Positions 1 to 59,353 of a stretch of DNA of 64,000 bases are shown here, piece by piece. The notes under the pieces were generated by a model. The model saw only the letters and a program-made list of their open reading frames with translations. It had not been told where the DNA came from and searched no databases. Origin of the DNA: Phyllobates terribilis (lineage: Eukaryota); NCBI RefSeq assembly GCF_046119375.1, contig NW_027362769.1, positions 362,576,001-362,640,000 on the forward strand. Direction: 5' to 3'. A program made the position numbers and the translations under genes. Position 1 is the first letter of the stretch. Each line of letters starts with the position of its first letter.

Positions 1-221
1 GGGCCCTGGGGTGGCTACAGGGCATGGAGATCCCGAGTTGGACCTCCGGTAGAGCCACAACCAGACAGGTTTTGCTTCCGAGGTCAGAGGTAGAGCCAAT
101 AGGGAGCACCTAAATAGGTGCAAACTATTTACAAAGTTAGTCTGTCTCCTGGTTAACGTCCACAGGGACAAGTGTTTATAGATAATCCGGGAGGAAAAAA
201 AAGCAACATAATTAAACAAAA

Positions 222-1628
222 TCAGCAACTAGTCCAACAACTGGGAGGTGTATCTTCCGGTGCTGCTTTACAGTGATAGCCCCACTGGGGAAAAGGCTCG
301 TGCTTCCCGACAGAGCCGGACCGGTCCTCTGTTGCCAGGTGCGTGGGGGCATCCTCCTTGAACACCCTATGGACATCCAGGGCATACCATCCACGCTCCC
401 CGTGGTGGCGGGTGTAAGAAACTAAATCACCCGGATAGAGGTTCCGGCCAGGGTGACCCTTCTCCAGCTGTGGCTCGACGTCCCGCCTACTGACAAAGAC
501 GTCTTGGGCAAACTGGGGGCTCCGAATAAAGCCCCATCCCGCCTCCTGGAGGAAGTGTACAATAAGGCCTTCCTCCCGGGAGCTTGGACGGGTGGCCTCT
601 GCCTGGCGGGCCCTTGTTTTGGCGGCTTTGGTGCGCACCTCCAGGCGCTCGCAGTGGATCATCCTCTCCCGCCGCTCCTTGTCGAGTTGGAGGAGCTCCT
701 TCTGATAGAACTCCTCCCTCCTCCGTGCTTCGGCCTTGGCCTCCTGGGGGAAGCCCATCAGGTCCCCCCCCTGGTTGTCCCAGGCCATCTCTTCTGCCGC
801 CGGACAGGCGACTGGAGGCGCGGGCAACGACGACAGCAGGGGTTGCTGCAGGTCCTCAGCTGGAGCGGACCAGTTCGGGTTGGGGTAGGTGGTCTCCCCA
901 GTGGATGCAGGATCCCTTTGACCGGGAGTCGGGAGGCATAGCAGGCCTCCAGCGACGGCGGTGACTTGGGCCTCGGGCTCCGGAGCCAAGAGCTGCTCCC
1001 ACACGACGGCGCCCGGGGTCAGGGGTGCCGGAATAAGATACAGGAGGGCCTCAGTGCGTTTTGAGCCTGGGACAGGGGACTCTTCCTTACCCGTTCCTGG
1101 GCTGCACAAGGCCTCCGGGGCTTCCTCCGTCTGGGCTGCGGCCCTAGTGGACAGGCTTGTAGAGCTCTGGCGGCGGGCCCGGATCTTCCGTAACACCTCC
1201 TCTCTCCACTCTGCAGCGGCCAATCGCTGGGCCTCTTCAACCCTCCGGGCCAGGTCCTGCGTTTCTCCACGGAGGTACTCGGCCTCATCCGGGGTCAGGT
1301 AGATTCCCTCCATTCCAAGAGAGGTGGCAGCTTGTGGGCCAGCGTCGGAGGACTTGGAAGACATCTCCTCGGCTGCGTCCATCTCTGCTGCAGGGTGTGG
1401 TGAGTCTCGGTTTGCAACAGCCGCACCTTGTTGTAACCTTCGTCTCCTCTTCTTTTCAGGGCGGTTCCAAGGCCGCTGGCTGACAGGCACTCCCCAGGAC
1501 GTTCCATCCGTCTTGACGGACACTACCATGCGGACTGTCTCTGTTGAAGGGGGCGGTCGGCTATTTTGGCGCCATTGGGAAGCCAGGCCCACAATGGGAA
1601 GTCTTAGGTTGCTGTTGTTTCTGCACAT
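222..1628 (-). CDS. 468-aa protein: N-terminal helical region, Pro/Ala/Glu-rich linker, charged coiled-coil, C-terminal cold-shock domain (about nt 366-575)
   Basis: Uninterrupted ORF. GLIVHFLQEAGWGFIRSPQFAQDVFVSRRDV...LYPGDLVSY...GERGWYALDV matches the CSD pattern (RNP1-like GWGFI, RNP2-like DVFV, L..GD.V.Y, G..G..A..V). Confidence 0.8.
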   Translation of the reverse strand: MCRNNSNLRLPIVGLASQWRQNSRPPPSTETVRMVVSVKTDGTSWGVPVSQRPWNRPEKKRRRRLQQGAAVANRDSPHPAAEMDAAEEMSSKSSDAGPQAATSLGMEGIYLTPDEAEYLRGETQDLARRVEEAQRLAAAEWREEVLRKIRARRQSSTSLSTRAAAQTEEAPEALCSPGTGKEESPVPGSKRTEALLYLIPAPLTPGAVVWEQLLAPEPEAQVTAVAGGLLCLPTPGQRDPASTGETTYPNPNWSAPAEDLQQPLLSSLPAPPVACPAAEEMAWDNQGGDLMGFPQEAKAEARRREEFYQKELLQLDKERRERMIHCERLEVRTKAAKTRARQAEATRPSSREEGLIVHFLQEAGWGFIRSPQFAQDVFVSRRDVEPQLEKGHPGRNLYPGDLVSYTRHHGERGWYALDVHRVFKEDAPTHLATEDRSGSVGKHEPFPQWGYHCKAAPEDTPPSCWTSC

Positions 1629-1750
1629 AATGGCGTCCGTTCTTCTGGGGCGGGCGCCACATGGAATGTGAAACGACAGTTTGTTGGTGAAAGGCGCACA
1701 GTACCCGGTAGCAATGGGGGTTATCCTCTTCCATTGTTGCGGGAACGCAA

Positions 1751-1768
1751 ATCCTGCCGATTACGCCA
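1751..1768 (-). promoter_or_regulatory. Primer-binding site complementary to tRNA-Ser(AGA)
   Basis: Plus strand ATCCTGCCGATTACGCCA vs vertebrate tRNA-Ser(AGA) 3' end ATCCTGCCGACTACGCCA (17/18), a few bases from the LTR end. Confidence 0.85.
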
Positions 1769-1771
1769 AGT

Positions 1772-2950
1772 TACGACACCCCCCCCTGGGCGATGGGGTA
1801 CCCGGTGCCGGGTCTAAGGTGGTGGTATCGGGATGTCGTCATGGCCGCGACCCGGACCGTGCTCAGGGTTGTCGCATGAAAATAGTGGGCTTTGTTTTTA
1901 GGATGAGTGGTAACTCGACTACGCCACCTGTGGTTCCTGGTGAGGGCCACCAGCACTGCTACAGTCCTCTGAGGCTGATGTACTGGCAGTCAGGTTTGTA
2001 CTACTCCCAACAGGCGGAGCAGGCCTCAGGGCAGTGAGAGAGAGTAGAGTTCTGGAGGTTTGCGGTGTGTGCAGGGCCGCGCAAGAAAGGATAACAAAGG
2101 CCAGGGGTGAAGTCATCCAAGCTTTACTCACGTTTGTTTAGTAGCAGGTGCAAAGCTTCCCTCTGCTTCTCAGAGCGCGCTGCAGCCACCAGGAAGGGGT
2201 TCAGCACACTCCGGGTTATTAAGGTGCACTTGACAGGACCCCTGCACCAGAGTGTTCCTCTCTTTTTTATTGAACTTGAACCGCCTTGTGTCCCCACTAA
2301 GTCACGTACGGGTACTGCAATGTCCTTTAAGGGTAGCTTATAGCTCCCGGACCGACTGGTGGTGGACTGTGGTGTGAACGTGGCGTTAGGCCGGGTCCCT
2401 CTGGATAAACGCAGATTAAGGAATACGGGTGGTGACTCCGCTCCGTCCGTATCCGCCTGGGATCCACTTCAGCCTCCGGACTTCTCGGACAGGGACGTGG
2501 AGTGCAAAGTCAGATAATCGGGGACCGGTACCCCCTCTTGCGGCAGGATCTCTCTCTGCCGGGGCCAGAATGAGGGTAGCAGGTGGCGACTGCGCTCCAT
2601 CCGCACCCCCTGGGATCCTTTCGCCTGTGGAGCTTTTCTCCTCTGCTCCCCTCCTGGGCCTTCTGGTATGGACTAAGATTTAGAACAGAGCTGGCTATAA
2701 CTCAACTCTTCCCCAATCCCCAGTCTCGAGGACTGAGACCGGGAATCACAGAATCCTAGAACAGCTGCAGCTTGTACTGACTAACCACTCCAGGGAACTG
2801 CGACCAAAGACCTGGTTATTAAAATGGCCTCCAAATTTATATGAATCTGTTAAGTGCTTAGAAAAGTGCTTCCTCCACCCTCACTCACTACAAGGTTCCC
2901 CCTTTCTTTGGTTCCCCCCTTACTCCTCCATTCAGGACCGGGGCAGCACA
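1772..2950 (-). repeat. 5' LTR of the CSD element
   Basis: TG start at 2950, minus-strand TATA-like (~2838) and AATAAA (~2266). The U5 end resembles the LTR ends at 29763, 51408, 52250 and 59358. Confidence 0.75.
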
Positions 2951-5039: not shown

Positions 5040-6070
5040 ATAGTTTCCAAAATGGGGTCACTTGTGGGGCAGCTCCACTGTTTAGGCACATCAGGGGCTC
5101 TCCAAACGCAACATGGTGTCCGCTAACAATTTGAGCCGACAATTTGAACCCCCATTTTTACGAATCAATTTGTGAAGCACCTGGGGGTTCCAAGTGCTCA
5201 CTATGCATCTAGATAGGTGCCTTGGGGGGTATAGTTTCCAAAATGGGGTCACTTGTGGGGGAGCTCCAATGTTTGGGTACACAGGGGCTCTCCAAACGCA
5301 ACATGGTGTCCGCTAACAATTTGAGCCGATTTTCCATTCAATTTGTTAGCGGATACCATGTTGCATTTGGAGAGTGCCTGTGTGCCCAAACATTGGAGCT
5401 CCCCCACAAGTGACCCCATTTTGGAAACTAGACCCCCCAAGGCACCTATCTAGATGCATAGTGAGCACTTGGAACCCCTAGGTGCTTCACAAATTGATTC
5501 GTAAAAATGAAAAAGTGAAAAAAAAAACACTTTTTCATTTTTACGAATCAGTTTGTGAAGCACCTGGGGGTTCCAAGTGCTCACTATGCATCTAGATAGG
5601 TGCCTTTGGGGGTCTAGTATCCAAAATGGGGTCACTTGTGGGGGAGCTCCAATGCTTGGGCACACAGGGGCTCTCCAAACGCAACATGGTGTCCGCTAAC
5701 AATTTGAGCCGATTTTCCATTCAATTTGTTAGCGGATACCATGTTGCATTTGGAGAGTCGCTGTGTGCCCAAACATTGGAGCTCCCCCACAAGTGACCCC
5801 ATTTTGGAAACTAGACCCCCCAAGGCACCTATCTAGATGCATAGAGAACACTTGAAACCCCTAGGTGCTTCACAAATTGATTCGTAAAAATGAAAAAGTG
5901 AAAAAAAAAACACTTTTTCATTTTTACGAATCAATTTGTGAAGCACCTCAGGGTTCCAAGTGCTCACTATGCATCTAGATAGGTGCCTTGGGGGGTCTAG
6001 TTTCCAAAATGGGGTCACTTTTGGGGGCGCTCCAATGTTTGGGCACACAGGGGCTCTCCAAACACAACAT
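5040..6070. repeat. Array of alternating direct and inverted ~80-100-bp modules (383-bp period)
   Basis: Module B (TAGTTTCCAAAATGGGGTCACTTGTGGGG...CCGCTAAC) and module A (TTTTTACGAATC...GTGCCTTGGGGG) occur as B A B B' A' A B B' A' A B. Confidence 0.85.
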
Positions 6071-7194
6071 GGCGTCCGCTAATTATTCAAGCAAATTTTA
6101 CAATCAAAAAGTCAAATGGCGCTCCTTCCCTTCCGAGCCCTGCCGTGCGCCCAAACAGTGTTTTTTCCCCACATATTGGGTATCTGCGTGCCCAGGGGAA
6201 ATTGCACAACAAATTTTGGGGTCCATTTTTTCTTGTTACCCCTGTGAAAATAAAAAAAATTGGGTCTAAAGTAACATTTTTGTGAAAAAAGTTAAATGTT
6301 CATTTTTTTCTTCCACATTCCAAAAATTCCTGTGAAGCACCTGAAGGGTTAATAAAGTTCTTGTATGTGGTTTTGAGCACCTTGAGGCGTGCAGTTTTTA
6401 GAATGTTGTCACTTTTGGGTATTTTCTGTCATAAAGACCTCTCAAAGTGACTTCAAATGTGATGTGGTCCCTAAAAAAATGGTTTTGTAAATTTTGTTGG
6501 AAAAATGAGAAATCGCTGGTCAACTTTTAACCCTTATAGCTCCCTAACAAAAAAAAATTTGGTTCCAAAATTGTGCTGATGTAAAGTAGACATGTGGGAA
6601 ATGTTATTTATTAACTCTTTTGTGTGACATATCTCTCTGATTTAAGGGCATAAAAATTCAAATTTTGAAAATTGCAAAATTTTCTAAATTTTCACCAAAT
6701 TTCCATTTTTTCACAAATAAACGCAAGTGATATCGAAGAAATTTTACCACGATCATGAAGTACAATATGTCACGAAAAAAACAATCTCAGAATCAGGGGG
6801 ATCCGTTGAAGCGTTCCAGAGAAATTACCTCATAAAGTGACAGTGGTCAGAATTGTAAAAATTGGCCTGGTCATTAACGTGCAAACCACCCTCGGGGCTT
6901 AAGGGGTTAAACCCCCTTCAGAACGGGAGTAGTGTGGTGCTGAGTGTGTAGTGGGTTCCTGAGTGGTGCTCCATCCAGAGGAAATACCACACCCCAGTCT
7001 GAGGTGCAGTACCCCTGTGGCGACTGAACCCTCAGGGGCGTCTGAACCCTCAGGAGAGCCACAGACTGTTCGTGTGGAACCTGTTTGAAATAACAGCCAA
7101 GTCTCTCCTCGCTCAGGCTCCCTATTCTGCCTCTTTCACCCGGTAGACTGTCGAGCATAGGGCACGAGGTCATAGATAGACCGGATGAACATAT

Positions 7195-15070: not shown

Positions 15071-15902
15071 TTATACTCCTCTGCTCCTGTTACCGCGTCA
15101 TGTGAACACGCCCCCTGCACTGCATTGGTCAATTTGTAGAACAAGCCGACAAATAGTGTGCGATATCCGCGACCAATCATCGTTCAGAAACTCAGCCTAG
15201 AACTCAGTAACCCCATCCTCCAAAAGAGGGAGCGGGGTCTGTCCAGTTCACACTCATTACCAGCTGCTCTGATCAACATGCGGCTTCTAGAGCAGGAGCC
15301 GCCGATGTCTCTCTATTCCCATGTTCTCCATACACGGAGCTGGACTATAGCTCCGCAGCCTTCACTCTCATTCCGGGCTATACTGATCTTCTTGGTCTCC
15401 CATAGGAATAATCCCCCCTTTACTAATTCAGACGCAGGTTATAAGGGTCGCAGCAGAAGTCTGCAGTAAGGATTGATGGGACGAGTGACAAGATTGCTGT
15501 AACACATCGGCCCTTCCCTTCTTGCGCTGTTGCCTATCGTTCTGCAGTCCATCCATACAATCCTGTCCCCAGTTCACGGACCTGTACAGTAGTCATCAGT
15601 CACATGCAGGGAGACGCTGGTTTTATAGGTCTCACATTGGAGTTAGAACCACACACACCTTCCTTAAACGAAATTAGTTACAAGGATCACAGCCATATCA
15701 AGTGGTGAAGATGTGACAAAGCTTAGGTAGGAGATCGGCTTCTTCCAGTCCCTCCATGACACATCACTCCTGATGTACAGACACCAGAGGGAGCGCTGCC
15801 TGGAAGACAAGTGACACCTGTGGTCGGGATACAGCGCAGCTCCGGGAGCGCTGCAGATTAGTAGAAAAGACCCTCTTTATAGAAAAACTGTTCTGCCAGA
15901 GA

Positions 15903-16620
15903 CAAGATGGTGGCTCTGTTTATACAGCTCTGCCGGGGACAAGGTGATGGCACTGATTATACAGCTCTGCAGGGTACAAGGTGGTGGCACTGATTATACA
16001 GCTCTGCCGAGGACAAAGTGATGGCACTGATAATACAGCTCTGCAGTGTACAAGGTGGTGGCACTGATTATACAGCTCTGCAGGGGACAAGGTGGTGGCA
16101 CTGATTATACAGCTCTGCAGGGGACAAGGTGGTGGCACTGATTATACAGCTCTGCAGGGTACAAGGTGGTGGCACTGATTATACAGCTCTGCCGAGGACA
16201 AGGTGATGGCACTGATAAGTCAGCTCTGCCGGGGACAAGGTGGTGGCACTGATTATACAGTTCTGCAGGGTACAAGGTGGTGGCACTGATTATACAGCTC
16301 TGCCGAGGACAAAGTGATGGCACTGATAATACAGCTCTGCAGGGTACAAGGTGGTGGCACTGATTATACAGCTCTGCAGGGGACAAGGTGGTGGCACTGA
16401 TTATACAGCTCTGCAGGGTACAAGGTGGTGGCACTGATTATACAGCTCTGCCAAGGACAAGGTGATGGCACTGATAATACAGCTCTGCCGGGGACAAGGT
16501 GGTGGCACGGATTATACAGCTCTCCCGAGGACAAGGTGATGGCACTGATAATACAGCTGTGCAGGGGACAAGGTGGTGGCACTGATTATACAGCTCTGCA
16601 GGGGACAAGGTGGTGGTTCT
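15903..16620. repeat. 37-bp minisatellite, ~19 units, directly downstream of H1
   Basis: Unit GGTGGTGGCACTGATTATACAGCTCTGCAGGGGACAA; contiguous with the H1 stem-loop. Confidence 0.95.
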
Positions 16621-19064: not shown

Positions 19065-21150
19065 GTTGGAAGAGTCATGGAGGTTAGAGTTAATCAAAAA
19101 CAACATTTCAATGCCTCTTGGAAGAGCTATGGAGTTCAGAATGGTTTAACAAGACAGTTTTAATGCCCCTTGGAAGAGCGGTGGAGGTCGCACTAGCTTA
19201 ACAAGATGGTTTTAATGCCCCTGGGAAAACTGGTGGAGGTCGCAGTAGCTTAACAAGACGGTTTTAATGTCTCTTGGAGAAGTGGTGGAGGTCTCAGTTG
19301 CTTAACAAGACGGTTTAAATGCCCCTTGGAAGAGACGTGGAGGTCGCAGTAGCTTCACAAGACGGTTTTAATGCCCATTGGAAGAATGGTGGAGGTCGCA
19401 GTAGCTTGACAAGACGGTTTAAATGCCCTTTGGAAGAGACGTGGAGGTCGCAGTAGCTTAAAAAGACGGTATTAATGCCCTTTGGAAGAGACGTGGAGGT
19501 CGCAGTAGCTTAGCAAGACGGTTTAAATGCCCCTTGGAAGAGATGTGGAGGTTGCAGTTGCTTAACAAGACAGTTTAAATGCCCCTTGGAAGAGATGTGT
19601 AGGTCGTAGTAGCTTAAAAAGACGGTTTTAATGCCCCTTGGAAGAGCGGTGGAGGTCGCAGTAGCTTAACAAGACTGTTTTAATGCCCCTTGGAAGAGAA
19701 GTGGAGGTCACAGTGGAATAAAAAGACAATATCAATGCCCCTTCAAAATGTGGTGGAGGTTGCCGTAGCTTAACAAGACGGTTTTAATGCCCCTGGGAAA
19801 AGTGGTGGAGGTCGCAGTTGCTTAACAAGAAGGTTTTAATGCCCCTTGGAAGAGACGTGGAGGTCGCAGTTGCTGAACAAGATGGTTTTAATGCCCCTTG
19901 GAAGAGCGGTGGAGGTCGCAGTAGCTAAACAAGATGGTTTTAATGCCCCTTGGAAGAGACGTGGAGGTTGCAGTAGCTTAACAAGACTGTTTAAATGCCC
20001 CTTGGAAGAGACGTGGAGGTTGCAGTAGCTTAACAAGACTGTTTAATTGCCCCTTGGAAGAGACGTGGAGGTAGCAGTAGCTTAACAAGACGGTTTTAAT
20101 GCCCCTTGGAGAAGTGGTGGACGTCGCAGTAGCTTAAGAAGACGGTTTTAATGCCCCTTGGAAGAGACGTGGAGGTCACAGTGGAATAAAAAGACAATAT
20201 CAATGCCCCTTGAAAATGTGGTGGAGGTTGCAGTAGATTAACAAGACGGTTTTAATGCCCCTGGGAAAAGTGGTGGAAGTCGCAGTAGCTTAACAAGAAG
20301 GTTTTAATGCCCCTTGGAAGAGACGTGGAGATCGCAGTAGCTGAACAAGATGGTTTTAATGCCCCTTGGAAGAGACGTGGAGGTCGTAGTAGCTTAAAAA
20401 GACGGTTTTAATGCCCCTTGGAAGAGCAGTGGAGGTCGCAGTAGCTTAACAAGACGGTTTTAATGCCCCTTGGAAGAGACGTGGAGGTCACAGTGGAATA
20501 AAAAGACAATATCAATGCCCCTTGAAAATGTGGTGGAGGTTGCAGTAGCTTAGCAAGACGGTTTTAGTGCCCCTGGGAAAAGTGGTGGAGGTCGCAGTAG
20601 CTTAACAAGAAGGTTTTAATGCCCCTTGGAAGAGACGTGGAGGTCGCAGTAGCTGAACAAGATGGTTTTAATGCCCCTTGGAAGAGACGTGGCGGTCGCA
20701 GTAGCTTAACAAGATGGTTTTAATGCCCCTTGGAAGAGACGTGGAGGTCGCAGTAGCTTAACAAGACTGTTTAAATGCCCCTTGGAAGAGACGTGGAGGT
20801 TGCAGTAGCTTAACAAGACTGTTTAATTGCCCCTTGGAAGAGACGTGGAGGTTGCAGTAGCTTAACAAGACGGTTTTAATGCCCCTTGGAGAAGTGGTGG
20901 AGGTCGCAGTAGCTTAAGAAGACGGTTTTAATGCCCCTTGGAAGAGACGTGGAGGTCACAGTGGAATAAAAAGACAATATCAATGCCCCTTGAAAATGTG
21001 GTGGAGGTTGCAGTAGCTTAACAAGACGGTTTTAATGCCCCTGGGAAAAGTGGTGGAGGTCGCAGTAGCTTAACAAGACGGTTTAAATGCCCCTTGGAAG
21101 AGACGTGGCGGTCGTAGTAGCTTAACCAGACGGTTTTAATGCCCCTTACA
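19065..21150. repeat. 52-bp satellite, ~40 units, with higher-order structure
   Basis: Unit AATGCCCCTTGGAAGAGACGTGGAGGTCGCAGTAGCTTAACAAGACGGTTTT; the variant unit CACAGTGGAATAAAAAGACAATATC recurs at 468/312/468-bp spacing. Confidence 0.95.
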
Positions 21151-21824
21151 AGAGCCATGCAGTACAGCATATTAAAAACATTATTCCCATTATTGGGGAA
21201 TGGTTCTCCCATAGTCTTTGCCTATGCCTTCCAAGCAAAAGCTGGCAAAAATTAGGACAGAGGAACTTGCAATGCTGGCAACACGGACCACGGTCTCCCT
21301 GGTGGTATAGTGTGGTGGAGGCTGAGGATAAGGAGAAGAGCAAAATACAGCCGAAATGAGGAAGCGTATACCCATGTGTGTGTGTTATGATCTGCAACAT
21401 AAACTAAGGAAAGATAGGGGAAAGCTGTCCCTACCGTAAGACTAAGCTGAATCCCTACGATGCAGCGGGCTGCCTGTTCCTTGCGAACAGACCCGCCTTC
21501 GTCCTCGGCTAGTCTGAACGGAGACCTATAGAATAAAGGGAGGGGTCCCTAAAAGAACTAAGGACTGGGACAAAAATGGGACACCTCCTAACAGAAGTTG
21601 TTACAGAGCAAAAGACAAACTGACAAAAAGTACTAGAGGTCCCAGAGGACCAAGCAAACTGAAAGAATAGGTACAGAAGCACCTGGCTACTAAGACAGTC
21701 TAGAAAACACTGAAGTCCAGCGAGGCAAGAAGGGCGGAGCTGGAATATATCGGCAGCTGGTCACGTGACCGCAAAACACAAGATAGCAAAAACTAACAGG
21801 AGGGTTCTAACAGTACCCCCTCTT

Positions 21825-24506
21825 CTATGAGGATCCTCCGGATCCTCCAGGCCCAGGCCTATCAGGAATTCTCCTGTGGAAATCTTTAACAAGCTTAGGG
21901 ACAGAGACATCATCCGTCCTTACCCAGTAGTTGTCTTCGGGACCGAAACCCTTCCAGGAGACAAGATGCTGTAATTTCCCTCTATGCAATCTAGAATTCA
22001 AAATACGAGAAATTTCATATTCGCCGTCTTCCACCACAGGTGGAAGTGTGACAGTGGCGTCCATATTAGATACGTCAGCCTTTTTCAGCAAGGAAACATG
22101 AAACACAGGATTAATCTTCCAGGAAGTAGGGACATCCAACCTTACAGCAGATGGGTTAACAACCTGAAGCACTTTAAATGGACCCACAAACTTAGGACCC
22201 AGTTTTTTAGAGGGAATCCTCAACCGCAGGTTCTTCGAGGACAACCAAACCATGTCACCCACCATAAACAAAACCTCTTTACGCTTCCTGTCAAAATACT
22301 TCTTGGACTTCTTGTTATCCTCTTGCAGGTTACAACGTACATTAGTCCAAACTCTCTCCAAATCACCGGAAAAATTCTCCTCCTCCGGCACCGCCGACCC
22401 CAATTTGGAGAACGAACCAAAAGACGGATGTCTCCCATTACAACAAAAAAAGGAGAACACCCAGCAGAGGAGGATGTATGATTGTTAAGAGCAAATTCTG
22501 CGAGAGGCAGAAACTCAGACCACACCTCTTGATTGTCTGCCACAAAACAACGCAAAAACTGTTCAACATCCTGGTTCTTTCTTTCAGTCTGTCCATTAGA
22601 CTCAGGATGATAACCAGACGAAAATGACAAATGGACTCCCAACCTGTCACAAAAAGCACGCCAAAAGCGAGCCACAAACTGAGGTCCTCTATCAGAAACA
22701 ATATCTGTGGGGACACCATGGAGCTTGACAATCTCCTTAACAAACGCCTTAACGAGAGTCTTGGCGCAGGGCAACTTGGAATGGAACCAAATGACACATC
22801 TTACTAAAACGGTCCACGACCACCCAGATGACAGTAAACCCCTCAGACACAGGAAGATCAGTAATAAAATCCATAGTGAGATGCGTCCAAGGCGCACTAG
22901 GAACCTCCAGAGGACAAAGCAACCCCGCAGCAGGAGTATGTGAAGCCTTTGACCTAGCACACACAGTACACCGACGCACCCATTTGATGACTACCTTCTG
23001 CCATCCAGGCCACCAAAAACTGCGACTGATAAGTCTCTTAGTCTCCGAAACTCCTGGATGACCTGCCAACCGAGACTCATGACACTCCACAAACAAATCT
23101 CTCCTAAAGGCTCTAGGCACGAACAACCTCCCATGGGGAGTGTTAGATGGAGCATCATCTTGAGCATTCAGAATCCCATTCTCCAAATCGGACTCTAATG
23201 CCGCCACCACAACTCCTTTCTGCAAAATGCTCTCCTCCTCCTCGGCACCGACCGTAGGAGAAAAGCTGCGAGATAAAGCATCAGCTTTAACATTCTTAGT
23301 ACCAGGGATATAGGTAACAGAAAAATGAAGCCGAGAAAACAAAAGTGCCCACCTAGCTTGACGGGCATTCAAGCGCTTGGCAGCATCCAGATAGATCAAA
23401 TTCTTATGATCTGTGAAAACCTGAATAGAAAATCTTGCGCCTTCCAAAAAATGACGCCAGTGTTCAAACGCAAGTTTAATAGCCAGCAGCTCCTGATTGC
23501 CAACATCATAATTCAGTTCGGTTTCCGAAAAATTTTTCGAAAAGAAGGCACAAGGATGTACTCCACCCTTGTTCTCTTGAGACAAAACTGCTCTGACCCC
23601 CACTGATGAAGCATCGACCTCGACCAAAAAAGGCTTGGTCTCATCAGGCTGCATAAGGATAGGGGCAGAACTGAACCTCTCTTTGAGATACTCAAACGCT
23701 TCAATGGCTTCAGTAGTCCACTGGGCGGTATTCGCACCTTTCCTGGTGAGATTGGTTAGAGGTTTAACAATTACAGAAAAATTCTTAATGAATTTCCTGT
23801 AATAATTGGCAAAACCCAAAAACCTCTGTATAGATTTCAAACCAATAGGCCTAGGCCATTCCTGCACAGCCTGAACCTTCACAGGGCCCATCTCAAAGCC
23901 CTTGCTGGAGATAATGTAGCCCAAAAAACTAATTTTCTGCACAGCGAACTCACATTTCTCCAGCTTAGCAAAGAGTGAATTATCACTCAATAACTGCAAA
24001 ACTTCACGTACACTCTGCCAATGGGACTCAAAATCTGGTGAATAAATCAAAATGTCATCCAAATACACAACCACATTCTTACCAATCAAAGGTCTCAGGA
24101 TGTCATTAATAAGGTTCTGAAAAAATGAAGGTGCATTGGTAAGACCGAAAGGCATCACCAGATTCTCAAAATGACCTACCGGAGTGTTAAAAGCAGTTTT
24201 CCATTCATCACCCTCCTTCACTCGTAACAAATTGTATGCCCCTCGGAGATCAATTTTTGAGAACCACTTGGCCCCCACTAACTGGTTAAACAAGTCAGGA
24301 ATTAACGGCAATGGATAGGAATTGCGTACGGTAATCTTATTAATTTCACGAAAATCCAGACATGGACGTAAACCGCCATCCTTTTTTTTAACAAAGAAGA
24401 ATCCAACTGCCACAGGCGACTTAGAAGGTCTAATATGACCAGCAGCCAGGCTAGTCTCTATGTACTCCTCCAAGGCCTTTCTTTCAGGGATAGTCAGATT
24501 AAACAA
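21825..24506 (-). pseudogene. pol: Pol (RT, RNase H, integrase, chromodomain) of the chromovirus
   Basis: VVYLDDILIYS, VDAS/DHKNL RNase H, HHCC zinc finger, integrase core DRGPQF..YHPESNGQTER, GPF motif, chromodomain YEISRILNSR..HLVSWKGFGPEDNYW. Frameshifts near 22770 and 22450. Confidence 0.92.
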
Positions 24507-25813
24507 GCGACTTTTGGAAGAGTAGCACCTGGAACAAACTCAATGGCGCAATCATAATCCCTATGAGGAGGTAAAACTTGCGAGTCCTCCGAAAAAACCC
24601 TCCAAAAATCTTGAATAGGTACTGGTAATCCCCCTTTTTCCACAGCCGCCATGCGACCATTACAACAATTATCATAGCACTTCGGACTCCAAGACTTAAT
24701 CACATTAGTAGACCAGTCCAACAAAGGATTGTGCAATTTTAACCAAGGCAATCCTAGAACAACTGAAGAGGGCAAATTATCCAAAACAACCAAGTCCAAA
24801 ATTTCTTGGTGAACACCATTGATAGTGAGAGGAAATGCAGCAGTCTTGTGAGTTATACATTTCAAAGGAGTGTTATCAATTGCAACCACAGAAATAGGTG
24901 ATGACAAAGGTTTGGATTCCAATTTAAGTTTTTCCAAAAACTTTTTATCAATCACATTAAGTGTTGAACCACAATCCACAAATACCTGAAATTCAATCAA
25001 ATCTCCCTGCAGAGTAGTACTCCCAGAAAGGAACACTCCTGCAGAGCGTAAACAAGCTATACGGGTGTAACTGACCTTTTTTTTTTCTGTACTTAAACGA
25101 CGCTCACAATACTTAATCAAATGATCAGCTTTGCCACAATAAAGACACAATCCTTCGGTGAATCTCCGATCTCTTTCTTGAGAGCGGAGTGACATCGCCC
25201 CAACCTCCATTAGTTCTCCGCTGTCAGAGCAGATTTTCTGGAAACTAGGACCTGAAGTTACAGGAGTTTTTACATCATTGACCCTGGACCTTATTCTCCT
25301 GTCCAACCGAACAGCTAACTGCATAGCTTCCTGCAGAGTCTCAGGTGCAGGGAATGCAATTAGCAAATCCTTAACCCTTTCACTGAGACCAGCAAGAAAT
25401 AAACATTTCAGCGCAGAATTATTCCATTTAACTTCTGAAGCCCATCTTCTGAAGTGTGTGCAATAAATTTCAACATCATCTGACCCCTGATTCAAACGTC
25501 TAAGTTCTGATTCAGCAGATGAGATTCGATCAGAATCGTCATATAATAGCCCCATAGCAGAAAAAAATTCTTCAATAGAACTTAAACATGGATCATTAGG
25601 TTGGAGAGAAAAGGCCCACCCCTGTGGTTCTTTGCGCAAAAGTGACACAATAAAACCAATGCGCTGTGATTCATTCCCAGAGGACCGCGGTCTCAAACGA
25701 AAATAAAACAAACAAGCATTTTTAAAGGAAAAAAAATCTTGCTGTTTACCATTAAAAATACCAGGCAGTCCTACCTTGGGTTCGACAAAATGCGCTCCAG
25801 GACAGCTACTCAC
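24494..25813 (-). pseudogene. gag: Gag (capsid, CCHC knuckle) and protease of the chromovirus
   Basis: CLYCGKADHLIKYC zinc knuckle; VFVDCGST protease-like site; frameshift into RT near 24510. Confidence 0.9.
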
Positions 25814-26372
25814 GTGTTGCTGAAGTTGGCCACCTCCACAGACAATCCCTGCAGGCGTTGAGCCAACTCCTGGACGGAAAACATACTGATCCCCGAATTT
25901 CTTTCCTATAGTTTTTTTTTTTTTGAGCTGAGCTTACTGTTATGATCTGCAACATAAACTAAGGAAAGATAGGGGAAAGCTGTCCCTACCGTAAGACTAA
26001 GCTGAATCCCTACGATGCAGCGGGCTGCCTGTTCCTTGCGAACAGACCCGCCTTCGTCCTCGGCTAGTCTGAACGGAGACCTATAGACTAAAGGGAGGGG
26101 TCCCTAAAAGAACTAAGGACTGGGACAAAAATGGGACACCTCCTAACAGAAGTTGTTGCAGAGCAAAAGACAAACTGACAAAAAGTACTAGAGGTCCCAG
26201 AGGACCAAGCAAACTGACAGAATAGGTACAGAAGCACCTGGCTAGTAAGACAGTCTTGAAAACACTGAAGTCCAGCAAGGCCAGAAGGGCGGAGCTGGAA
26301 TATATAGGCAGCTGGTCACGTGACCACAAAACACAAGATAGCAAAAACTAACAGGAGGGTTCTAACAGTGTG

Positions 26373-28538: not shown

Positions 28539-30349
28539 TGTACCGCCCCGAGGGTTCGGTCGCTACAGAGGTATTGCATCTCACCCAGAGGTGTGATATC
28601 TCACTTCCAGGTAAGGATGGAGTGTGACTCAGGACCCTAACACCCACATTCACTACACCACATTTCCGGGTGACAGGGCGACAATACTCCCAAGAGTGAG
28701 CACAGCTGCCCCTGTCCCTGGCTGGAGTGGGGGGAGGGAACACCTAGAAAGGGGGAACCCGGTAGTGTGTGGGTGGGGAGAGTAGATCCAGGGTGCACTA
28801 TAAGGAGGAGTATATAAGGTGGGCACCATCTTAGAGTTCAGACTAGTCAGAGGAGGAGAAGTGACAGGAGCAGGGTCTCTGTACGAACTCTGCTCCGGAG
28901 GCGGGCCTAGCCAGTGAGGCCCAGGTCTGAGGAGAAGAGGGGAAAGGAGAGGAACGGAGGAGGCTCCAGGAGTGGAGTGAAGGGACCCCAGGGGTGCGGA
29001 CCGGCCAGTCGCCACCGTACGCCCGCCGCTACCAGAGTAGGGGGGTCAGGCCAAGAAAGGGAACCGGATCCCTCATCTAGTGGAGGAGAGCAACTACCCT
29101 CAGCTAATATCCGGAGGCCGTGGCATTGCACGTGTCATGGCCCCTCACTACACCCGTTAGGAAGGCACCATATAGGACCCAGGGAAACGGAACATACGTT
29201 TGCCCGCCAAGGCCCGAGGCAGCTGGACAGAAACGTGGTCAATTGTGGGGTACGACAGGCCAGAGGAAGGACACACGAAGGGGGTCCTGAAAAACATCCC
29301 AAAGTTACCTGGGAGTTGGCCGAGCCCCTCACCTGGTGAGCACAGTACGACTCGGGAAGCCATTACCTGTAGAAGTGGCTTGGAGTGTAAAACTGTGAGT
29401 AAAGACCCTGGACTGCATCACTGGACTTTGAGTCATTACTGTTGCTCCCGCGGGCCATCACCCTCATCATCTGCACTCACTGCCCTGATGCTATACTCCT
29501 CCCGTGGGGAGTTATACTACCCTCTGCTGCACACACAACATCAGCCTCAGCGGTCTGCCCCACAGCGGCGGTTCTCAGTGACCGCAATCCACGGGTGGCG
29601 TAGTCGGACATTTCAACATTGAAAACCAAGTAAACAGATCGGCCACTGGTTTGACCACCCTGAGCTACGGGACCAGGTCGCCGCCACAGAGACTACAACC
29701 CCCAGCATTACACAGAGACCCAGCTCCGGGTATTCCTCCACACATGGCCCAGGGGGCGCGTCAACTTTGGCGTTGTCGGCAGGATATGCAACCAACCCGT
29801 TATCACCGGGTATTGCGCGCCTAGAGACTGTTTTACTGTACTGAATGTGGCGCCCGCCCTAGTAGAACGGACACCAATATGTGCGCGCCAAAAGATAACA
29901 GGAAGCCACCTCCCATCGTGGACCAGGTCCCAGAATGGCACCAAAGACGGAGCCCACCCCCAACGGCCATGAGTGCGGCTGTAGAGATGTCCATCAACGT
30001 GGGGTGGCTGCCCCTGAGAGTGATTGTCAGCAGGTTTCCCCGGGACCAACCCCAACAGGGGCAGAAGGGAAAGAAAACCGAAGGGCAGGGTGTGGTTTGG
30101 ATCAGTCTTGGCAGACCACACCCGGAGATGGTGGGGAGCTCCAGCCCCAGTACCCTGACCAGTGGCCTGCTGCAGGCCGAAGCGACTCCATGCAGCCTCG
30201 TGGTACTGATGGCCCAGCTCCCCGGAGAGCACCCTGAATTCCTCCGGGCTGGGCTGGAGGATTTGGACCAGAGAATGGTCCAGGCGCAGTGGGAAGCCAT
30301 CGCGGGGTGGAAAGAAGAGATGGACTGGCATTACACAGAGACACGGCTC
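28539..30349 (+). mobile_element. tRNA-Ser(AGA)-primed LTR element related to the CSD element, inserted in the hAT gene (copy 1, cut by the duplication junction)
   Basis: LTR 28539-29763 (TGTA...GCGCGTCA), PBS TGGCGTTGTCGGCAGGAT at 29768-29785, ORF starting at 29879. Confidence 0.85.
29879..30349 (+). pseudogene. Truncated ORF homologous to the N-terminal region of the CSD protein at 222-1628
   Basis: EHPEFLRAGLEDLDQRMVQAQWEAIAGWKEEM aligns by eye with DEAEYLRGETQDLARRVEEAQRLAAAEWREEV; same position after the PBS; both start MC. Confidence 0.65.
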
Positions 30350-36351: not shown

Positions 36352-39300
36352 GTTGGAAGAGTCATGGAGGTTAGAGTTAATCAAAAACAACATTTCAATG
36401 CCTCTTGGAAGAGCTATGGAGTTCAGAATGGTTTAACAAGACAGTTTTAATGCCCCTTGGAAGAGCGGTGGAGGTCGCACTAGCTTAACAAGATGGTTTT
36501 AATGCCCCTGGGAAAACTGGTGGAGGTCGCAGTAGCTTAACAAGACGGTTTTAATGTCTCTTGGAGAAGTGGTGGAGGTCTCAGTTGCTTAACAAGACGG
36601 TTTAAATGCCCCTTGGAAGAGACGTGGAGGTCGCAGTAGCTTCACAAGACGGTTTTAATGCCCATTGGAAGAATGGTGGAGGTCGCAGTAGCTTGACAAG
36701 ACGGTTTAAATGCCCTTTGGAAGAGACGTGGAGGTCGCAGTAGCTTAAAAAGACGGTATTAATGCCCTTTGGAAGAGACGTGGAGGTCGCAGTAGCTTAG
36801 CAAGACGGTTTAAATGCCCCTTGGAAGAGATGTGGAGGTTGCAGTTGCTTAACAAGACAGTTTAAATGCCCCTTGGAAGAGATGTGTAGGTCGTAGTAGC
36901 TTAAAAAGACGGTTTTAATGCCCCTTGGAAGAGCGGTGGAGGTCGCAGTAGCTTAACAAGACTGTTTTAATGCCCCTTGGAAGAGACGTGGAGGTCACAG
37001 TGGAATAAAAAGACAATATCAATGCCCCTTCAAAATGTGGTGGAGGTTGCCGTAGCTTAACAAGACGGTTTTAATGCCCCTGGGAAAAGTGGTGGAGGTC
37101 GCAGTTGCTTAACAAGAAGGTTTTAATGCCCCTTGGAAGAGACGTGGAGGTCGCAGTTGCTGAACAAGATGGTTTTAATGCCCCTTGGAAGAGCGGTGGA
37201 GGTCGCAGTAGCTAAACAAGATGGTTTTAATGCCCCTTGGAAGAGACGTGGAGGTTGCAGTAGCTTAACAAGACTGTTTAAATGCCCCTTGGAAGAGACG
37301 TGGAGGTTGCAGTAGCTTAACAAGACTGTTTAATTGCCCCTTGGAAGAGACGTGGAGGTAGCAGTAGCTTAACAAGACGGTTTTAATGCCCCTTGGAGAA
37401 GTGGTGGACGTCGCAGTAGCTTAAGAAGACGGTTTTAATGCCCCTTGGAAGAGACGTGGAGGTCACAGTGGAATAAAAAGACAATATCAATGCCCCTTGA
37501 AAATGTGGTGGAGGTTGCAGTAGATTAACAAGACGGTTTTAATGCCCCTGGGAAAAGTGGTGGAAGTCGCAGTAGCTTAACAAGAAGGTTTTAATGCCCC
37601 TTGGAAGAGACGTGGAGATCGCAGTAGCTGAACAAGATGGTTTTAATGCCCCTTGGAAGAGACGTGGAGGTCGTAGTAGCTTAAAAAGACGGTTTTAATG
37701 CCCCTTGGAAGAGCAGTGGAGGTCGCAGTAGCTTAACAAGACGGTTTTAATGCCCCTTGGAAGAGACGTGGAGGTCACAGTGGAATAAAAAGACAATATC
37801 AATGCCCCTTGAAAATGTGGTGGAGGTTGCAGTAGCTTAGCAAGACGGTTTTAGTGCCCCTGGGAAAAGTGGTGGAGGTCGCAGTAGCTTAACAAGAAGG
37901 TTTTAATGCCCCTTGGAAGAGACGTGGAGGTCGCAGTAGCTGAACAAGATGGTTTTAATGCCCCTTGGAAGAGACGTGGCGGTCGCAGTAGCTTAACAAG
38001 ATGGTTTTAATGCCCCTTGGAAGAGACGTGGAGGTCGCAGTAGCTTAACAAGACTGTTTAAATGCCCCTTGGAAGAGACGTGGAGGTTGCAGTAGCTTAA
38101 CAAGACTGTTTAATTGCCCCTTGGAAGAAACGTGGAGGTTGCAGTAGCTTAACAAGACGGTTTTAATGCCCCTTGGAGAAGTGGTGGAGGTCGCAGTAGC
38201 TTAAGAAGACGGTTTTAATGCCCCTTGGAAGAGACGTGGAGGTCACAGTGGAATAAAAAGACAATATCAATGCCCCTTGAAAATGTGGTGGAGGTTGCAG
38301 TAGCTTAACAAGACGGTTTTAATGCCCCTGGGAAAAGTGGTGGAGGTCGCAGTAGCTTAACAAGACGGTTTAAATGCCCCTTGGAAGAGACGTGGAGGTT
38401 GCAGTAGCTTAACAAGACTGTTTAAATGCCCCTTGGAAGAGACGTGGAGGTTGCAGTAGCTTAACAAGACTGTTTAATTGCCCCTTGGAAGAGACGTGGA
38501 GGTAGCAGTAGCTTAACAAGACGGTTTTAATGCCCCTTGGAGAAGTGGTGGACGTCGCAGTAGCTTAAGAAGACGGTTTTAATGCCCCTTGGAAGAGACG
38601 TGGAGGTCACAGTGGAATAAAAAGACAATATCAATGCCCCTTGAAAATGTGGTGGAGGTTGCAGTAGATTAACAAGACGGTTTTAATGCCCCTGGGAAAA
38701 GTGGTGGAAGTCGCAGTAGCTTAACAAGAAGGTTTTAATGCCCCTTGGAAGAGACGTGGAGATCGCAGTAGCTGAACAAGATGGTTTTAATGCCCCTTGG
38801 AAGAGACGTGGAGGTCGTAGTAGCTTAAAAAGACGGTTTTAATGCCCCTTGGAAGAGCAGTGGAGGTCGCAGTAGCTTAACAAGACGGTTTTAATGCCCC
38901 TTGGAAGAGACGTGGAGGTCACAGTGGAATAAAAAGACAATATCAATGCCCCTTGAAAATGTGGTGGAGGTTGCAGTAGCTTAGCAAGACGGTTTTAGTG
39001 CCCCTGGGAAAAGTGGTGGAGGTCGCAGTAGCTTAACAAGAAGGTTTTAATGCCCCTTGGAAGAGACGTGGAGGTCGCAGTAGCTGAACAAGATGGTTTT
39101 AATGCCCCTTGGAAGAGACGTGGCGGTCGCAGTAGCTTAACAAGATGGTTTTAATGCCCCTTGGAAGAGACGTGGAGGTCGCAGTAGCTTAACAAGACTG
39201 TTTAAATGCCCCTTGGAAGAGACGTGGAGGTTGCAGTAGCTTAACAAGACTGTTTAATTGCCCCTTGGAAGAAACGTGGAGGTTGCAGTAGCTTAACAAG

Positions 39301-39581
39301 ACGGTTTTAATGCCCCTTGGAGAAGTGGTGGAGGTCGCAGTAGCTTAAGAAGACGGTTTTAATGCCCCTTGGAAGAGACGTGGAGGTCACAGTGGAATAA
39401 AAAGACAATATCAATGCCCCTTGAAAATGTGGTGGAGGTTGCAGTAGCTTAACAAGACGGTTTTAATGCCCCTGGGAAAAGTGGTGGAGGTCGCAGTAGC
39501 TTAACAAGACGGTTTAAATGCCCCTTGGAAGAGACGTGGCGGTCGTAGTAGCTTAACCAGACGGTTTTAATGCCCCTTACA
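36352..39581. repeat. 52-bp satellite, ~62 units (copy 2)
   Basis: Same unit and higher-order pattern, with an extra 1144-bp block. Confidence 0.95.
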
Positions 39582-39813
39582 AGAGCCATGCAGTACAGCA
39601 TATTAAAAACATTATTCCCATTATTGGGGAATGGTTCTCCCATAGTCTTTGCCTATGCCTTCCAAGCAAAAGCTGGCAAAAATTAGGACGGAGGAACTTG
39701 CAATGCAGGCAACACGGACCACGGTCTCCCTGGTGGTATAGTGTGGTGGAGGCTGAGGATAAGGAGAAGAGCAAAATACAGCCGAAATGAGGAAGCGTAT
39801 ACCCATGTGTGTG

Positions 39814-42800
39814 TGTTATGATCTGCAACATAAACTAAGGAAAGATAGGGGAAAGCTGTCCCTACCGTAAGACTAAGCTGAATCCCTACGATGCAGCGGG
39901 CTGCCTGTTCCTTGCGAACAGACCCGCCTTCGTCCTCGGCTAGTCTGAACGGAGACCTATAGAATAAAGGGAGGGGTCCCTAAAAGAACTAAGGACTGGG
40001 ACAAAAATGGGACACCTCCTAACAGAAGTTGTTACAGAGCAAAAGACAAACTGACAAAAAGTACTAGAGGTCCCAGAGGACCAAGCAAACTGAAAGAATA
40101 GGTACAGAAGCACCTGGCTACTAAGACAGTCTAGAAAACACTGAAGTCCAGCGAGGCAAGAAGGGCGGAGCTGGAATATATCGGCAGCTGGTCACGTGAC
40201 CGCAAAACACAAGATAGCAAAAACTAACAGGAGGGTTCTAACAGTACCCCCTCTTCTATGAGGATCCTCCGGATCCTCCAGGCCCAGGCCTATCAGGAAT
40301 TCTCCTGTGGAAATCTTTAACAAGCTTAGGGACAGAGACATCATCCGTCCTTACCCAGTAGTTGTCTTCGGGACCGAAACCCTTCCAGGAGACAAGATGC
40401 TGTAATTTCCCTCTATGCAATCTAGAATTCAAAATACGAGAAATTTCATATTCGCCGTCTTCCACCACAGGTGGAAGTGTGACAGTGGCGTCCATATTAG
40501 ATACGTCAGCCTTTTTCAGCAAGGAAACATGAAACACAGGATTAATCTTCCAGGAAGTAGGGACATCCAACCTTACAGCAGATGGGTTAACAACCTGAAG
40601 CACTTTAAATGGACCCACAAACTTAGGACCCAGTTTTTTAGAGGGAATCCTCAACCGCAGGTTCTTCGAGGACAACCAAACCATGTCACCCACCATAAAC
40701 AAAACCTCTTTACGCTTCCTGTCAAAATACTTCTTGGACTTCTTGTTATCCTCTTGCAGGTTACAACGTACATTAGTCCAAACTCTCTCCAAATCACCGG
40801 AAAAATTCTCCTCCTCCGGCACCGCCGACCCCAATTTGGAGAACGAACCAAAAGACGGATGTCTCCCATTACAACAAAAAAAGGAGAACACCCAGCAGAG
40901 GAGGATGTATGATTGTTAAGAGCAAATTCTGCGAGAGGCAGAAACTCAGACCACACCTCTTGATTGTCTGCCACAAAACAACGCAAAAACTGTTCAACAT
41001 CCTGGTTCTTTCTTTCAGTCTGTCCATTAGACTCAGGATGATAACCAGACGAAAATGACAAATGGACTCCCAACCTGTCACAAAAAGCACGCCAAAAGCG
41101 AGCCACAAACTGAGGTCCTCTATCAGAAACAATATCTGTGGGGACACCATGGAGCTTGACAATCTCCTTAACAAACGCCTTAACGAGAGTCTTGGCGCAG
41201 GGCAACTTGGAATGGAACCAAATGACACATCTTACTAAAACGGTCCACGACCACCCAGATGACAGTAAACCCCTCAGACACAGGAAGATCAGTAATAAAA
41301 TCCATAGTGAGATGCGTCCAATGCGTACTAGGAACCTCCAGAGGACAAAGCAACCCCGCAGCAGGAGTATGTGAAGCCTTTGACCTAGCACACACAGTAC
41401 ACTGACGCACCCATTTGATGACTACCTTCTGCCATCCAGGCCACCAAAAACTGCGACTGATAAGTCTCTTAGTCTCCGAAACTCCTGGATGACCTGCCAA
41501 CCGAGACTCATGACACTCCACAAACAAATCTCTCCTAAAGGCTCTAGGCACGAACAACCTCCCATGGGGAGTGTTAGATGGAGCATCATCTTGAGCATTC
41601 AGAATCCCATTCTCCAAATCGGACTCTAATGCCGCCACCACAACTCCTTTCTGCAAAATGCTCTCCTCCTCCTCGGCACCGACCGTAGGAGAAAAGCTGC
41701 GAGATAAAGCATCAGCTTTAACATTCTTAGTACCAGGGATATAGGTAACAGAAAAATGAAGCCGAGAAAACAAAAGTGCCCACCTAGCTTGACGGGCATT
41801 CAAGCGCTTGGCAGCATCCAGATAGATCAAATTCTTATGATCTGTGAAAACCTGAATAGAAAATCTTGCGCCTTCCAAAAAATGACGCCAGTGTTCAAAC
41901 GCAAGTTTAATAGCCAGCAGCTCCTGATTGCCAACATCATAATTCAGTTCGGTTTCCGAAAAATTTTTCGAAAAGAAGGCACAAGGATGTACTCCACCCT
42001 TGTTCTCTTGAGACAAAACTGCTCTGACCCCCACTGATGAAGCATCGACCTCGACCAAAAAAGGCTTGGTCTCATCAGGCTGCATAAGGATAGGGGCAGA
42101 ACTGAACCTCTCTTTGAGATACTCAAACGCTTCAATGGCTTCAGTAGTCCACTGGGCGGTATTCGCACCTTTCCTGGTGAGATTGGTTAGAGGTTTAACA
42201 ATTACAGAAAAATTCTTAATGAATTTCCTGTAATAATTGGCAAAACCCAAAAACCTCTGTATAGATTTCAAACCAATAGGCCTAGGCCATTCCTGCACAG
42301 CCTGAACCTTCACAGGGTCCATCTCAAAGCCCTTGCTGGAGATAATGTAGCCCAAAAAACTAATTTTCTGCACAGCGAACTCACATTTCTCCAGCTTAGC
42401 AAAGAGTGAATTATCACTCAATAACTGCAAAACTTCACGTACACTCTGCCAATGGGACTCAAAATCTGGTGAATAAATCAAAATGTCATCCAAATACACA
42501 ACCACATTCTTACCAATCAAAGGTCTCAGGATGTCATTAATAAGGTTCTGAAAAAATGAAGGTGCATTGGTAAGACCGAAAGGCATCACCAGATTCTCAA
42601 AATGACCTACCGGAGTGTTAAAAGCAGTTTTCCATTCATCACCCTCCTTCACTCGTAACAAATTGTATGCCCCTCGGAGATCAATTTTTGAGAACCACTT
42701 GGCCCCCACTAACTGGTTAAACAAGTCAGGAATTAACGGCAATGGATAGGAATTGCGTACGGTAATCTTATTAATTTCACGAAAATCCAGACATGGACGT

Positions 42801-50004: not shown

Positions 50005-50920
50005 CACGCAGTTTTTTTTTAACGGCAAAAAATGACAAAAAAAGGATAATACAGAGATTTGACCCGTGGAACTGCAAAACCACAGTTATACTTTTCTGGC
50101 CTACACCAGAATCTTTCAAACAGATATATTTCTGTCTGAACAATCAGGGAGACACTAGTACTGTTTTTTTTTACAGCAAAAAATGCTAAAAACAGGATAA
50201 TACAGAGATTTGACCCGTGAAACTGAAAAAACACAGTTATATTTTTCTGGCCTACACCAGACTCTTTTAAACAGATATATTTGAGTCTGACCAGTCAGGG
50301 AGACACTATTACAGTTTTTTTTACGGCAAAAAATGCCAATAAAAGGATAATACAGAGATTTGACCAGTGGAACTGCAAAACCACCGATATATTTTTCTGG
50401 CCTACACCAGAATCTTTCAAGCAGATATATTGGTGTCTGAACATTCAGGAGACATTATTACTGTTTTTTTTTACAGCAAAAAAATGCCAAAAACAGGATA
50501 ATACAGAGATTTGACCTGTGGAACTGCAAAACCACAGTTATATTTTTCTGGCCTACACCAGACTCTTTTAAACAGATATATTTGTGTCTGACCAGTCAGG
50601 GAGACACTATTACAGGTTTTTTTTACGGCAAAAAATGCCAAAAAATGGATAATACAGAGATTTGACCCGTGGAACTGCAAAACCACAGTTATATTTTTCT
50701 GGTCTACACCAGACTCTTTTAAACAGATATATTTGTGTCTGAACAATCAGGGAGACACTATTATGGGTTTTTTTTATGGCAAAAAATGCCAAAAACAGGA
50801 TAATACAGAGATTTGACCCGTGGAACTGCAAAACCACAGTTATATTTTTCTGGCCTACACCAGACTCTTTTAAACAGATATATTGGTGTCTGAACAGTCA
50901 CAGACACACTCAATTTTTTT
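50005..50920. repeat. ~153-bp tandem repeat, ~6 units, in the hAT 5' region
   Basis: TTTTTTACGGCAAAAAATGCCAAAAA..GGATAATACAGAGATTTGACCCGTGGAACTGCAAAACCACAG recurs about every 152-153 bp. Confidence 0.9.
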
Positions 50921-57860: not shown

Positions 57861-57872
57861 GGCCTGGTTGGT

Positions 57873-59335: not shown

Positions 59336-59353
59336 ATCCTGTTCATGACGCTA
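59336..59353 (-). promoter_or_regulatory. Primer-binding site complementary to tRNA-Ser(CGA)
   Basis: Plus strand ATCCTGTTCATGACGCTA vs a vertebrate tRNA-Ser(CGA) 3' end ATCCTGTTCGTGACGCCA (16/18), 4 nt from the LTR. Confidence 0.75.

Follow-up and report, generated by a model that had tools for sequence, protein, structure and literature searches.

The window, a stretch of 64,000 nucleotides from the genome of Phyllobates terribilis, contains LTR elements which carry within the LTR, upstream of the true primer binding site (PBS), a short second copy of the start of that PBS, here designated PBS'. One of these, on the minus strand at 52250–60458, displays the features of a Ty3/Gypsy element: paired TG...CA LTRs, a PBS, a PPT adjoining the 3' LTR, and the order RT-RNase H-integrase. 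Its gag-pol is broken (internal region 53339–59335), and its 3' LTR (52250–53338) is 93% identical to the 5' LTR (59358–60458). A target-site duplication was sought; further LTR pieces adjoin both ends. Among named sequences, the RT region is closest to those of dendrobatid frogs (70% and 46%) and of fishes. Just before the RT lies a weak dUTPase-like match (56420–57415, minus strand) with an E value of 0.0013, below the cut-off.

The PBS of this element (59336–59353, 2 mismatches) is of the Ser-CGA type and matches a genomic tRNA-Ser(CGA) gene (L037). Its 5' LTR contains, in minus-strand order, a TATA-like sequence (60320–60326), an AGTAAA hexamer (59712–59717), a loop heptamer (59597–59603), the strand predicted to pair with it in a pseudoknot stem (59513–59519), a PBS' of the Ser-CGA type (59499–59512), and an 11-nt complement of nt 1–11 of tRNA-Ser(CGA) (59421–59431). 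Since PBS' and the site for the tRNA 5' end are also present in the 3' LTR (52391–52404 and 52313–52323), the module lies inside the LTR. Both recur in an adjacent partial LTR of a sister subfamily (51408–52249, minus strand), at 51547–51559 and 51473–51483.

Element A, also on the minus strand, has a 5' LTR at 1772–2950. Here PBS' (1916–1926) is an 11-nt complement of the 3' end of tRNA-Ser(AGA/TGA), covering NCCA and the acceptor 3' strand. Abutting it on the 5' side is the predicted 3' strand of the pseudoknot stem (1927–1933), whose predicted partner is a hairpin-loop heptamer (2008–2014) with one mismatch in this copy. A site complementary to nt 1–12 of tRNA-Ser(AGA), with one mismatch region, occurs at 1835–1846, the true PBS (Ser AGA/TGA, 1 mismatch) at 1751–1768, and an AGTAAA, which would be the poly(A) signal, at 2123–2128. 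The element specifies a 512-aa stop-to-stop frame (222–1760, minus strand) with a weak match to the cold-shock domain [PF00313; E 5e-5, 23.5 bits, below the Pfam cut-off of 27].

Other single-long-frame LTR elements with this weak cold-shock-domain (CSD) match were seen at L033, L036, L081–L089 and L092. Their LTRs are built like those of the gag-pol elements, with which they also have a piece of 3' UTR in common (window 2–86 versus 60874–60960), and judged from these sequences they are probably non-autonomous partners bringing their own RNA chaperone. A description of such a family was not found in the literature that was searched. The initial annotation had assigned the Ser(AGA) primer to CSD-type elements and Ser(CGA) to gag-pol elements; this grouping does not hold generally, as CSD-frame elements occur with either PBS type.

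A CSD-like element, B, is present in two copies, B1 and B2, which lie on the plus strand within a 9.2-kb duplicated block of 99.8% identity, and are identical at 1228 of 1231 nt over the LTR plus the PBS start. B1 consists of an LTR (28539–29763) with loop heptamer (29501–29507), pseudoknot stem strand (29589–29595), PBS' (29596–29607), a tRNA 5'-end site (29683–29696; 5+6 bp with a 3-nt bulge) and a true PBS (29768–29785). In its segmental duplicate the LTR spans 46970–48194 and the module 47932–48216, with PBS' at 48027–48038, the 5'-end site at 48114–48127 and the true PBS at 48199–48216.

Thus all six internal motifs listed by the initial annotation are present, four on the minus strand and two (29596 and 48027) on the plus strand. 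Their starts lie 154–168 nt before the LTR end, in agreement with the 140–170 nt first proposed, and 158–172 nt before the PBS; the window PBSs themselves are each 1–2 nt off the tRNA. The preceding CCAC(A/G)GG was found at five of the six; CCTCAGG precedes the motif at 52404. The CSD-type motifs do match their own PBS, as was claimed, and this type fits tRNA-Ser(TGA) equally, since both tRNAs have the same 3' end. Because B1 and B2 are duplicates and the three gag-pol sites belong to one nested Gypsy element (two LTRs plus a partial third), the window holds about three independent cases, fewer than had been counted when a switch of the motif together with the PBS was judged hard to explain by chance.

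The association was surveyed in this one genome. The Ser sample comprised the window and 126 loci, of which 28 were the best DNA matches of the window family and the others were collected with PBS patterns that ignore the internal motif; it gave 129 matches, or 118 after removal of near-duplicates. The best 11-mer of either type was picked blind from the 270 nt upstream of each junction. A PBS' 120–200 nt upstream was present at 105 junctions, and its type agreed with that of the PBS in every one (60 Ser-CGA and 45 Ser-AGA/TGA), so that the proposed covariation is borne out genome-wide. The 13 junctions left out were four tandem-duplicated ends (all same-type), three tRNA genes and six without the motif, namely unrelated LTR ends at L090, L091, L127 (twice) and L130, and L065, which has no upstream LTR. 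The two types of PBS' differ at five adjacent bases, each fitting its own tRNA, and the chance of an exact 11-mer within 300 nt is about 7e-5. Besides L037, genomic tRNA genes confirm the Ser-AGA primer (L132, L134), and a Ser-TGA gene (L135) has the same 3' end as Ser-AGA.

Conservation was computed on 87 rows, 18 surplus rows of the window family having been dropped from the 105. The majority fraction is 0.98/0.94 for the two types at nt 1–11 of PBS' and equally high, 0.90/0.96, over the 7 nt preceding it, and drops to 0.45/0.52 at nt 19–30; that is, conservation ends where the acceptor strand of the tRNA ends. Between one and four switches suffice to explain the distribution of Ser types: a tree of the upstream 450 nt needs four changes of PBS type, and a tree of the spacer two. 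As a single AGA/CGA clade is not rejected in the latter (p-AU 0.60), the 105 Ser rows may reflect one switch.

A second clade argues for the same relationship. The tRNA-Leu(AAG) PBS pattern has 3813 matches in the genome, and Leu-AAG tRNA genes are found at L206–L209. In these elements the integrase precedes the RT (L076, L169, L175, L178, L187, L195, L201–L203), an order which we take to be that of Gmr1-like Gypsy elements. An exact 9–11-nt copy of the element's own PBS lies 180–388 nt upstream in 26 of 53 Leu rows, belonging to four of 13 LTR clusters, and in L076 it is present in both LTRs. These elements give independent support for a primer-matched PBS'; the RT tree (18 rows) is too sparse to choose between one and two origins of the module. 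The initial suggestion of a tRNA-recruiting aid gains likelihood at the sequence level, since the covariation with the primer holds and extends to this clade.

The module is family-specific rather than universal, being absent from other Leu clusters and from both Ser-GCT families that were read. Nine of the 13 Leu clusters lack PBS', three of these being truncated or rearranged rows, and the short-LTR Ser-AGA elements L090, L091, L127 and L130 lack the module. It is thus dispensable in many families. A purine-rich look-alike (9–10/11) upstream of AATAAA in a Ser-GCT family was treated as chance.

A hairpin farther upstream has a loop complementary to the 6–7 nt that immediately precede PBS', giving a predicted pseudoknot. 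Three compensated heptamer pairs account for 79 of the 105 Ser rows (48, 21 and 10). Over five helices in 30 aligned rows, 96% of cells are paired and 18 of 31 pairs show two-sided changes, counts inflated by the fact that the helices were drawn from the same sequences. In a blind scan, 70 of 87 Ser rows had the hairpin-loop pairing at PBS', compared with none at the true PBS and a mean of 1.5 at other offsets; for Leu the numbers were 14 of 22 rows, 1 of 22 and a mean of 0.4. The Leu pseudoknots have at least four different stem sequences. Single-sequence folds of 24 copies, a check of the kind first recommended, revealed no consistent partner for PBS'. RNAalifold (26 rows) predicts local hairpins, leaves the tRNA 5'-end site unpaired, and gives a weak 4-bp helix between PBS' and PBS. 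A search of Rfam found nothing near the gathering score for the module.

The third component is a site complementary to nt 1–8/12 of the tRNA, which follows the isoacceptor as well. In Ser LTRs the complement of nt 1–11/12 lies about 75–90 nt before the PBS. For Ser-CGA elements the median predicted duplex is -21.8 kcal/mol with the cognate tRNA versus -16.3 with the non-cognate (42 rows), and for Ser-AGA elements -16.7 versus -15.0 (45 rows), shuffled sequences giving about -13. The cognate 5' end is predicted to bind better in 37/42 CGA and 36/45 AGA rows; the AGA duplex often contains a 2–5-nt bulge, and is predicted to be only slightly more stable than that with the non-cognate 5' end. Among 17 Leu rows with an exact 5'-end site of at least 7 nt (7–9 nt), 16 have PBS' 38–65 nt downstream of it, while the distance from this site to the PBS varies (245–453 nt). 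The site is therefore downstream of PBS' in Ser and upstream in Leu elements. Being equally far from both in Ser elements, it may there serve the PBS.

At the G.U positions of the acceptor stem two sites each fitted to the tRNA would mismatch each other, which allows fit to the tRNA to be recognized. In Ser-CGA elements C opposite tRNA G7 together with A opposite U66 occurs in 46 of 60 rows (10 not read, 4 other). The 30 Leu candidates include 22 rows with A opposite U3 together with C opposite G70, two with other bases and six that were not read. Each of the two sites is therefore fitted to the tRNA. The downstream U5 site, at first taken for an anti-PBS, fits the tRNA 5' end better, and that reading was given up. 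The internal PBS' is real, beyond chance, and structurally richer than first described, the pseudoknot and the 5'-end site having been no part of that description.

On predicted energies, which ignore unfolding and modifications of the tRNA, the duplex of the tRNA 3' end at PBS' is worth -20 to -26 kcal/mol, where opening costs 3–11, and that at the true PBS -27 to -37 kcal/mol. The module very probably binds tRNA. What is seen at the sequence level is two complementarities, their tracking of the isoacceptor, compensated helices, and a near absence of LTRs ending at PBS'. Based upon these we favour, at about even chances, a three-part module (a PBS' of 9–13 nt, the 5'-end site and the predicted pseudoknot) which captures and parks the primer tRNA. 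The acceptor stem would be opened and its strands split between PBS' and the 5'-end site, so that the tRNA is clamped without priming. As its CCA end would be stacked against the stem of the pseudoknot, no single-stranded template would remain for reverse transcriptase, and presumably only an uncharged tRNA would fit well. Captured for packaging and parked in this manner, the primer would then move on to the 18-nt PBS, whose predicted binding is stronger than that of PBS' by about 10 kcal/mol.

The foremost alternative is that the module binds tRNA and acts on formation of the RNA 3' end, not on priming. In the 5' LTR it might suppress the weak poly(A) site; in the 3' LTR the bound tRNA might instead serve as a guide for cleavage, by RNase P or RNase Z, of the RNA beyond the poly(A) site. 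The module is placed in U5 on the strength of poly(A)-like hexamers upstream of it. In the Ser rows AGTAAA occurs 180–240 nt before PBS' (82 hexamers in 87 rows), and in Leu module families ATTAAA or AGTAAA is found at -256 to -443; module families thus have such a non-canonical hexamer, with a GU-rich tract, far from the LTR end and the module just downstream. Module-free families mostly have AATAAA 59–170 nt from the end. Since module families are in this way linked to weak, distant poly(A) signals, a role in 3'-end processing is possible, if rather unlikely. Nucleotides 5–11 of PBS' repeat tRNA nt 1–7, as cleavage guided by the tRNA would suppose, and presumably resemble a guide-sequence substrate. 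However, a long U5 would be needed in any case to hold the module, and cleavage within the 5' U5 would break the template.

That the module is a T-box-like sensor, in which uncharged cognate tRNA switches a long leader between translation and packaging, we hold to be distinctly unlikely. In the discriminator of bacterial T-boxes, UGGN pairs with the NCCA of the tRNA beside an RNA helix. The UGGN-NCCA pairing here, abutting a helix, has what we assume to be the same arrangement, and several compensated helices surround it. Unlike a T-box, the frog module would open the whole acceptor stem; there is no Rfam family near threshold, and no alternative fold appeared in the folds of 24 copies. A tentative and wider proposal, which we hold to be less likely than not, is that of a pseudoknot tRNA clamp in vertebrate Gypsy LTRs, occurring in two clades or more and adapted to each primer, which possibly selects uncharged tRNA as a regulatory ligand or cleavage guide and so acts as a T-box-like sensor gating polyadenylation, translation or the start of reverse transcription.

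The initial annotation had also considered an alternative priming site. As a productive route, or as the relic of an older LTR end and PBS refreshed by recopying from the tRNA, this is improbable. A CA followed by four nt and PBS' does mirror the true LTR end, the change of five bases points to a single templated event at some earlier time, and in Drosophila gypsy an 11-nt PBS suffices (PMC1635307). Nevertheless, a search for copies ending at the internal site, one of the checks first proposed, found 18 LTR copies without the start of PBS' versus 5262 intact; 16 of the 18 are small indels inside full LTRs and two stop at PBS', one of them insertion-like. With at most two LTRs ending there, productive priming at PBS' must be rare, though the pattern used sees about one quarter of random breaks and covers Ser-CGA-type flanks only. 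Where the PBS of a single copy no longer fits the family tRNA, its PBS' is still that of the family, which indicates inheritance of PBS' together with the LTR rather than renewed copying in every cycle, and the heptamer containing the "CA" varies with its pseudoknot partner.

It is highly improbable that the motif is not directed at tRNA at all but is passed down with the LTR as a CTCF- or CRE-like protein site in the DNA, or as a sequence that pairs within the molecule with the downstream U5 site. There are few independent switches, and CCACAGGTGGCG has what we take to be a resemblance to the CTCF motif. Yet the flanks change in compensated pairs, including G.U pairs, Leu elements have other flanks in the same layout, the two element sites mismatch at the wobble positions, and no consistent intramolecular partner appeared in the 24 folds.

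The remaining suggestion of the initial annotation, a decoy or target for 3' tRNA fragments, is scarcely credible. In its favour, 3'-tRFs act through the PBS, and little is said to be known of how tRF3a finds its targets (PMC7472051); the same review reports that inhibition by tRF3a is very sensitive to mismatches. None of the 105 PBS' matches PBS nt 12–17, the region of seed pairing, at 5/6 or better, and a 3'-tRF would leave the site for the tRNA 5' end unexplained.

The module has partial counterparts in known systems. Yeast Ty1 and Ty3 have element sites besides the PBS that contact the primer (PMC5371799); they pair with the TpsiC and D arms of the one tRNA that also primes, and in Ty3 they lie in the 3' U3. 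Unlike these, the frog module would combine a second 3'-end site, a site for nt 1–12 and a pseudoknot cap. As in such multipartite primer binding, the 5'-end site complements a part of the primer that lies beyond its 3' 18 nt; PBS' repeats the 3'-terminal match, whereas the extra sites of the Ty1/Ty3/gypsy type pair with other regions of the tRNA. Drosophila gypsy likewise has two 11-nt sites for tRNA-Lys2 in a Gypsy element; the second pairs with the anticodon/TpsiC stems and not with the tRNA 3' end, lies near the genome 3' end outside U5, and is unneeded for cDNA synthesis, its role being left open (PMC1635307). In HIV, too, U5 upstream of the PBS pairs with the primer and can limit primer choice; the partners of the PAS and A-rich loop, and of the U5-TpsiC contact in HIV-2, are the TpsiC stem and anticodon loop, and no duplicate 3'-end site is described there (PMC3185550). 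Like Helenus/TRIMp3, the frog LTRs contain tRNA-related sequence. The Helenus LTR has a tRNA-like promoter without PBS complementarity (PMC10886601), whereas the frog sites are short complements of the primer, and no tRNA match was found in the window 5' LTR. Two other reports mention tRNA-like or PBS-like sequence of other kinds (PMC4580426, PMC12853362).

The literature searched, to which subscription journals, Repbase reports and supplements did not belong and in which a prior mention could thus have been missed, contained no duplicated 3'-end site with a pseudoknot. The module would then be a variant of multipartite primer binding, duplicating the 3'-end site under a pseudoknot, that none of these sources describes. 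A set of 77 metagenome Gypsy loci was distant (39–53% identity in the best RT segment) and yielded no interpretable result. Selection, unfolding and timing of the primer in LTR elements have been worked out in a small number of models, from yeast, flies and retroviruses; the module adds three tRNA specificities, with families that naturally have it and others that lack it. If three sites must change together, this would explain rare primer switching in module families, and the module, if it binds as predicted, would add a new structured RNA that binds tRNA.

Several minor observations were made. Position 6 of the Ser-AGA PBS shows a recurrent T-to-C change in many subfamilies (e.g. L050, L052, L054) which is not mirrored in PBS' and might be due to a modified base, or to a less common variant of the tRNA. 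In many insertions (L031–L042, L076–L078, L088–L133) the PBS runs on into the tRNA; among 59 rows with such an extension, three of which are tRNA genes, most copy 25–53 nt, these loci having been selected by such a pattern, and one insertion seems to contain the whole tRNA complement. This suggests read-through past the usual modified-base stop. On the minus strand, a conserved stretch just after the PBS (59310–59322) complements about 59750–59760, just before the AGTAAA; such pairing, available solely at the 5' end, might hide the poly(A) site there. At C1:19.88–19.97 Mb (L144–L165) a 4.2-kb tandem array of over 20 units contains a fragment of a Leu-PBS LTR element.

Elsewhere in the window, a chromodomain Gypsy element with 432-bp LTRs of 98% identity (21383–26369 and 39814–44800, minus strand) was duplicated along with an 18.4-kb repeat unit. 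Tandem arrays with units of 52, 37, 151 and 383 bp, the last built of inverted repeats, occupy 19106–21154, 36393–39585, 15901–16616, 50009–50900 and 5153–6082. The LINE RT frames on the plus strand at 61695–63817 are presumably CR1-like.
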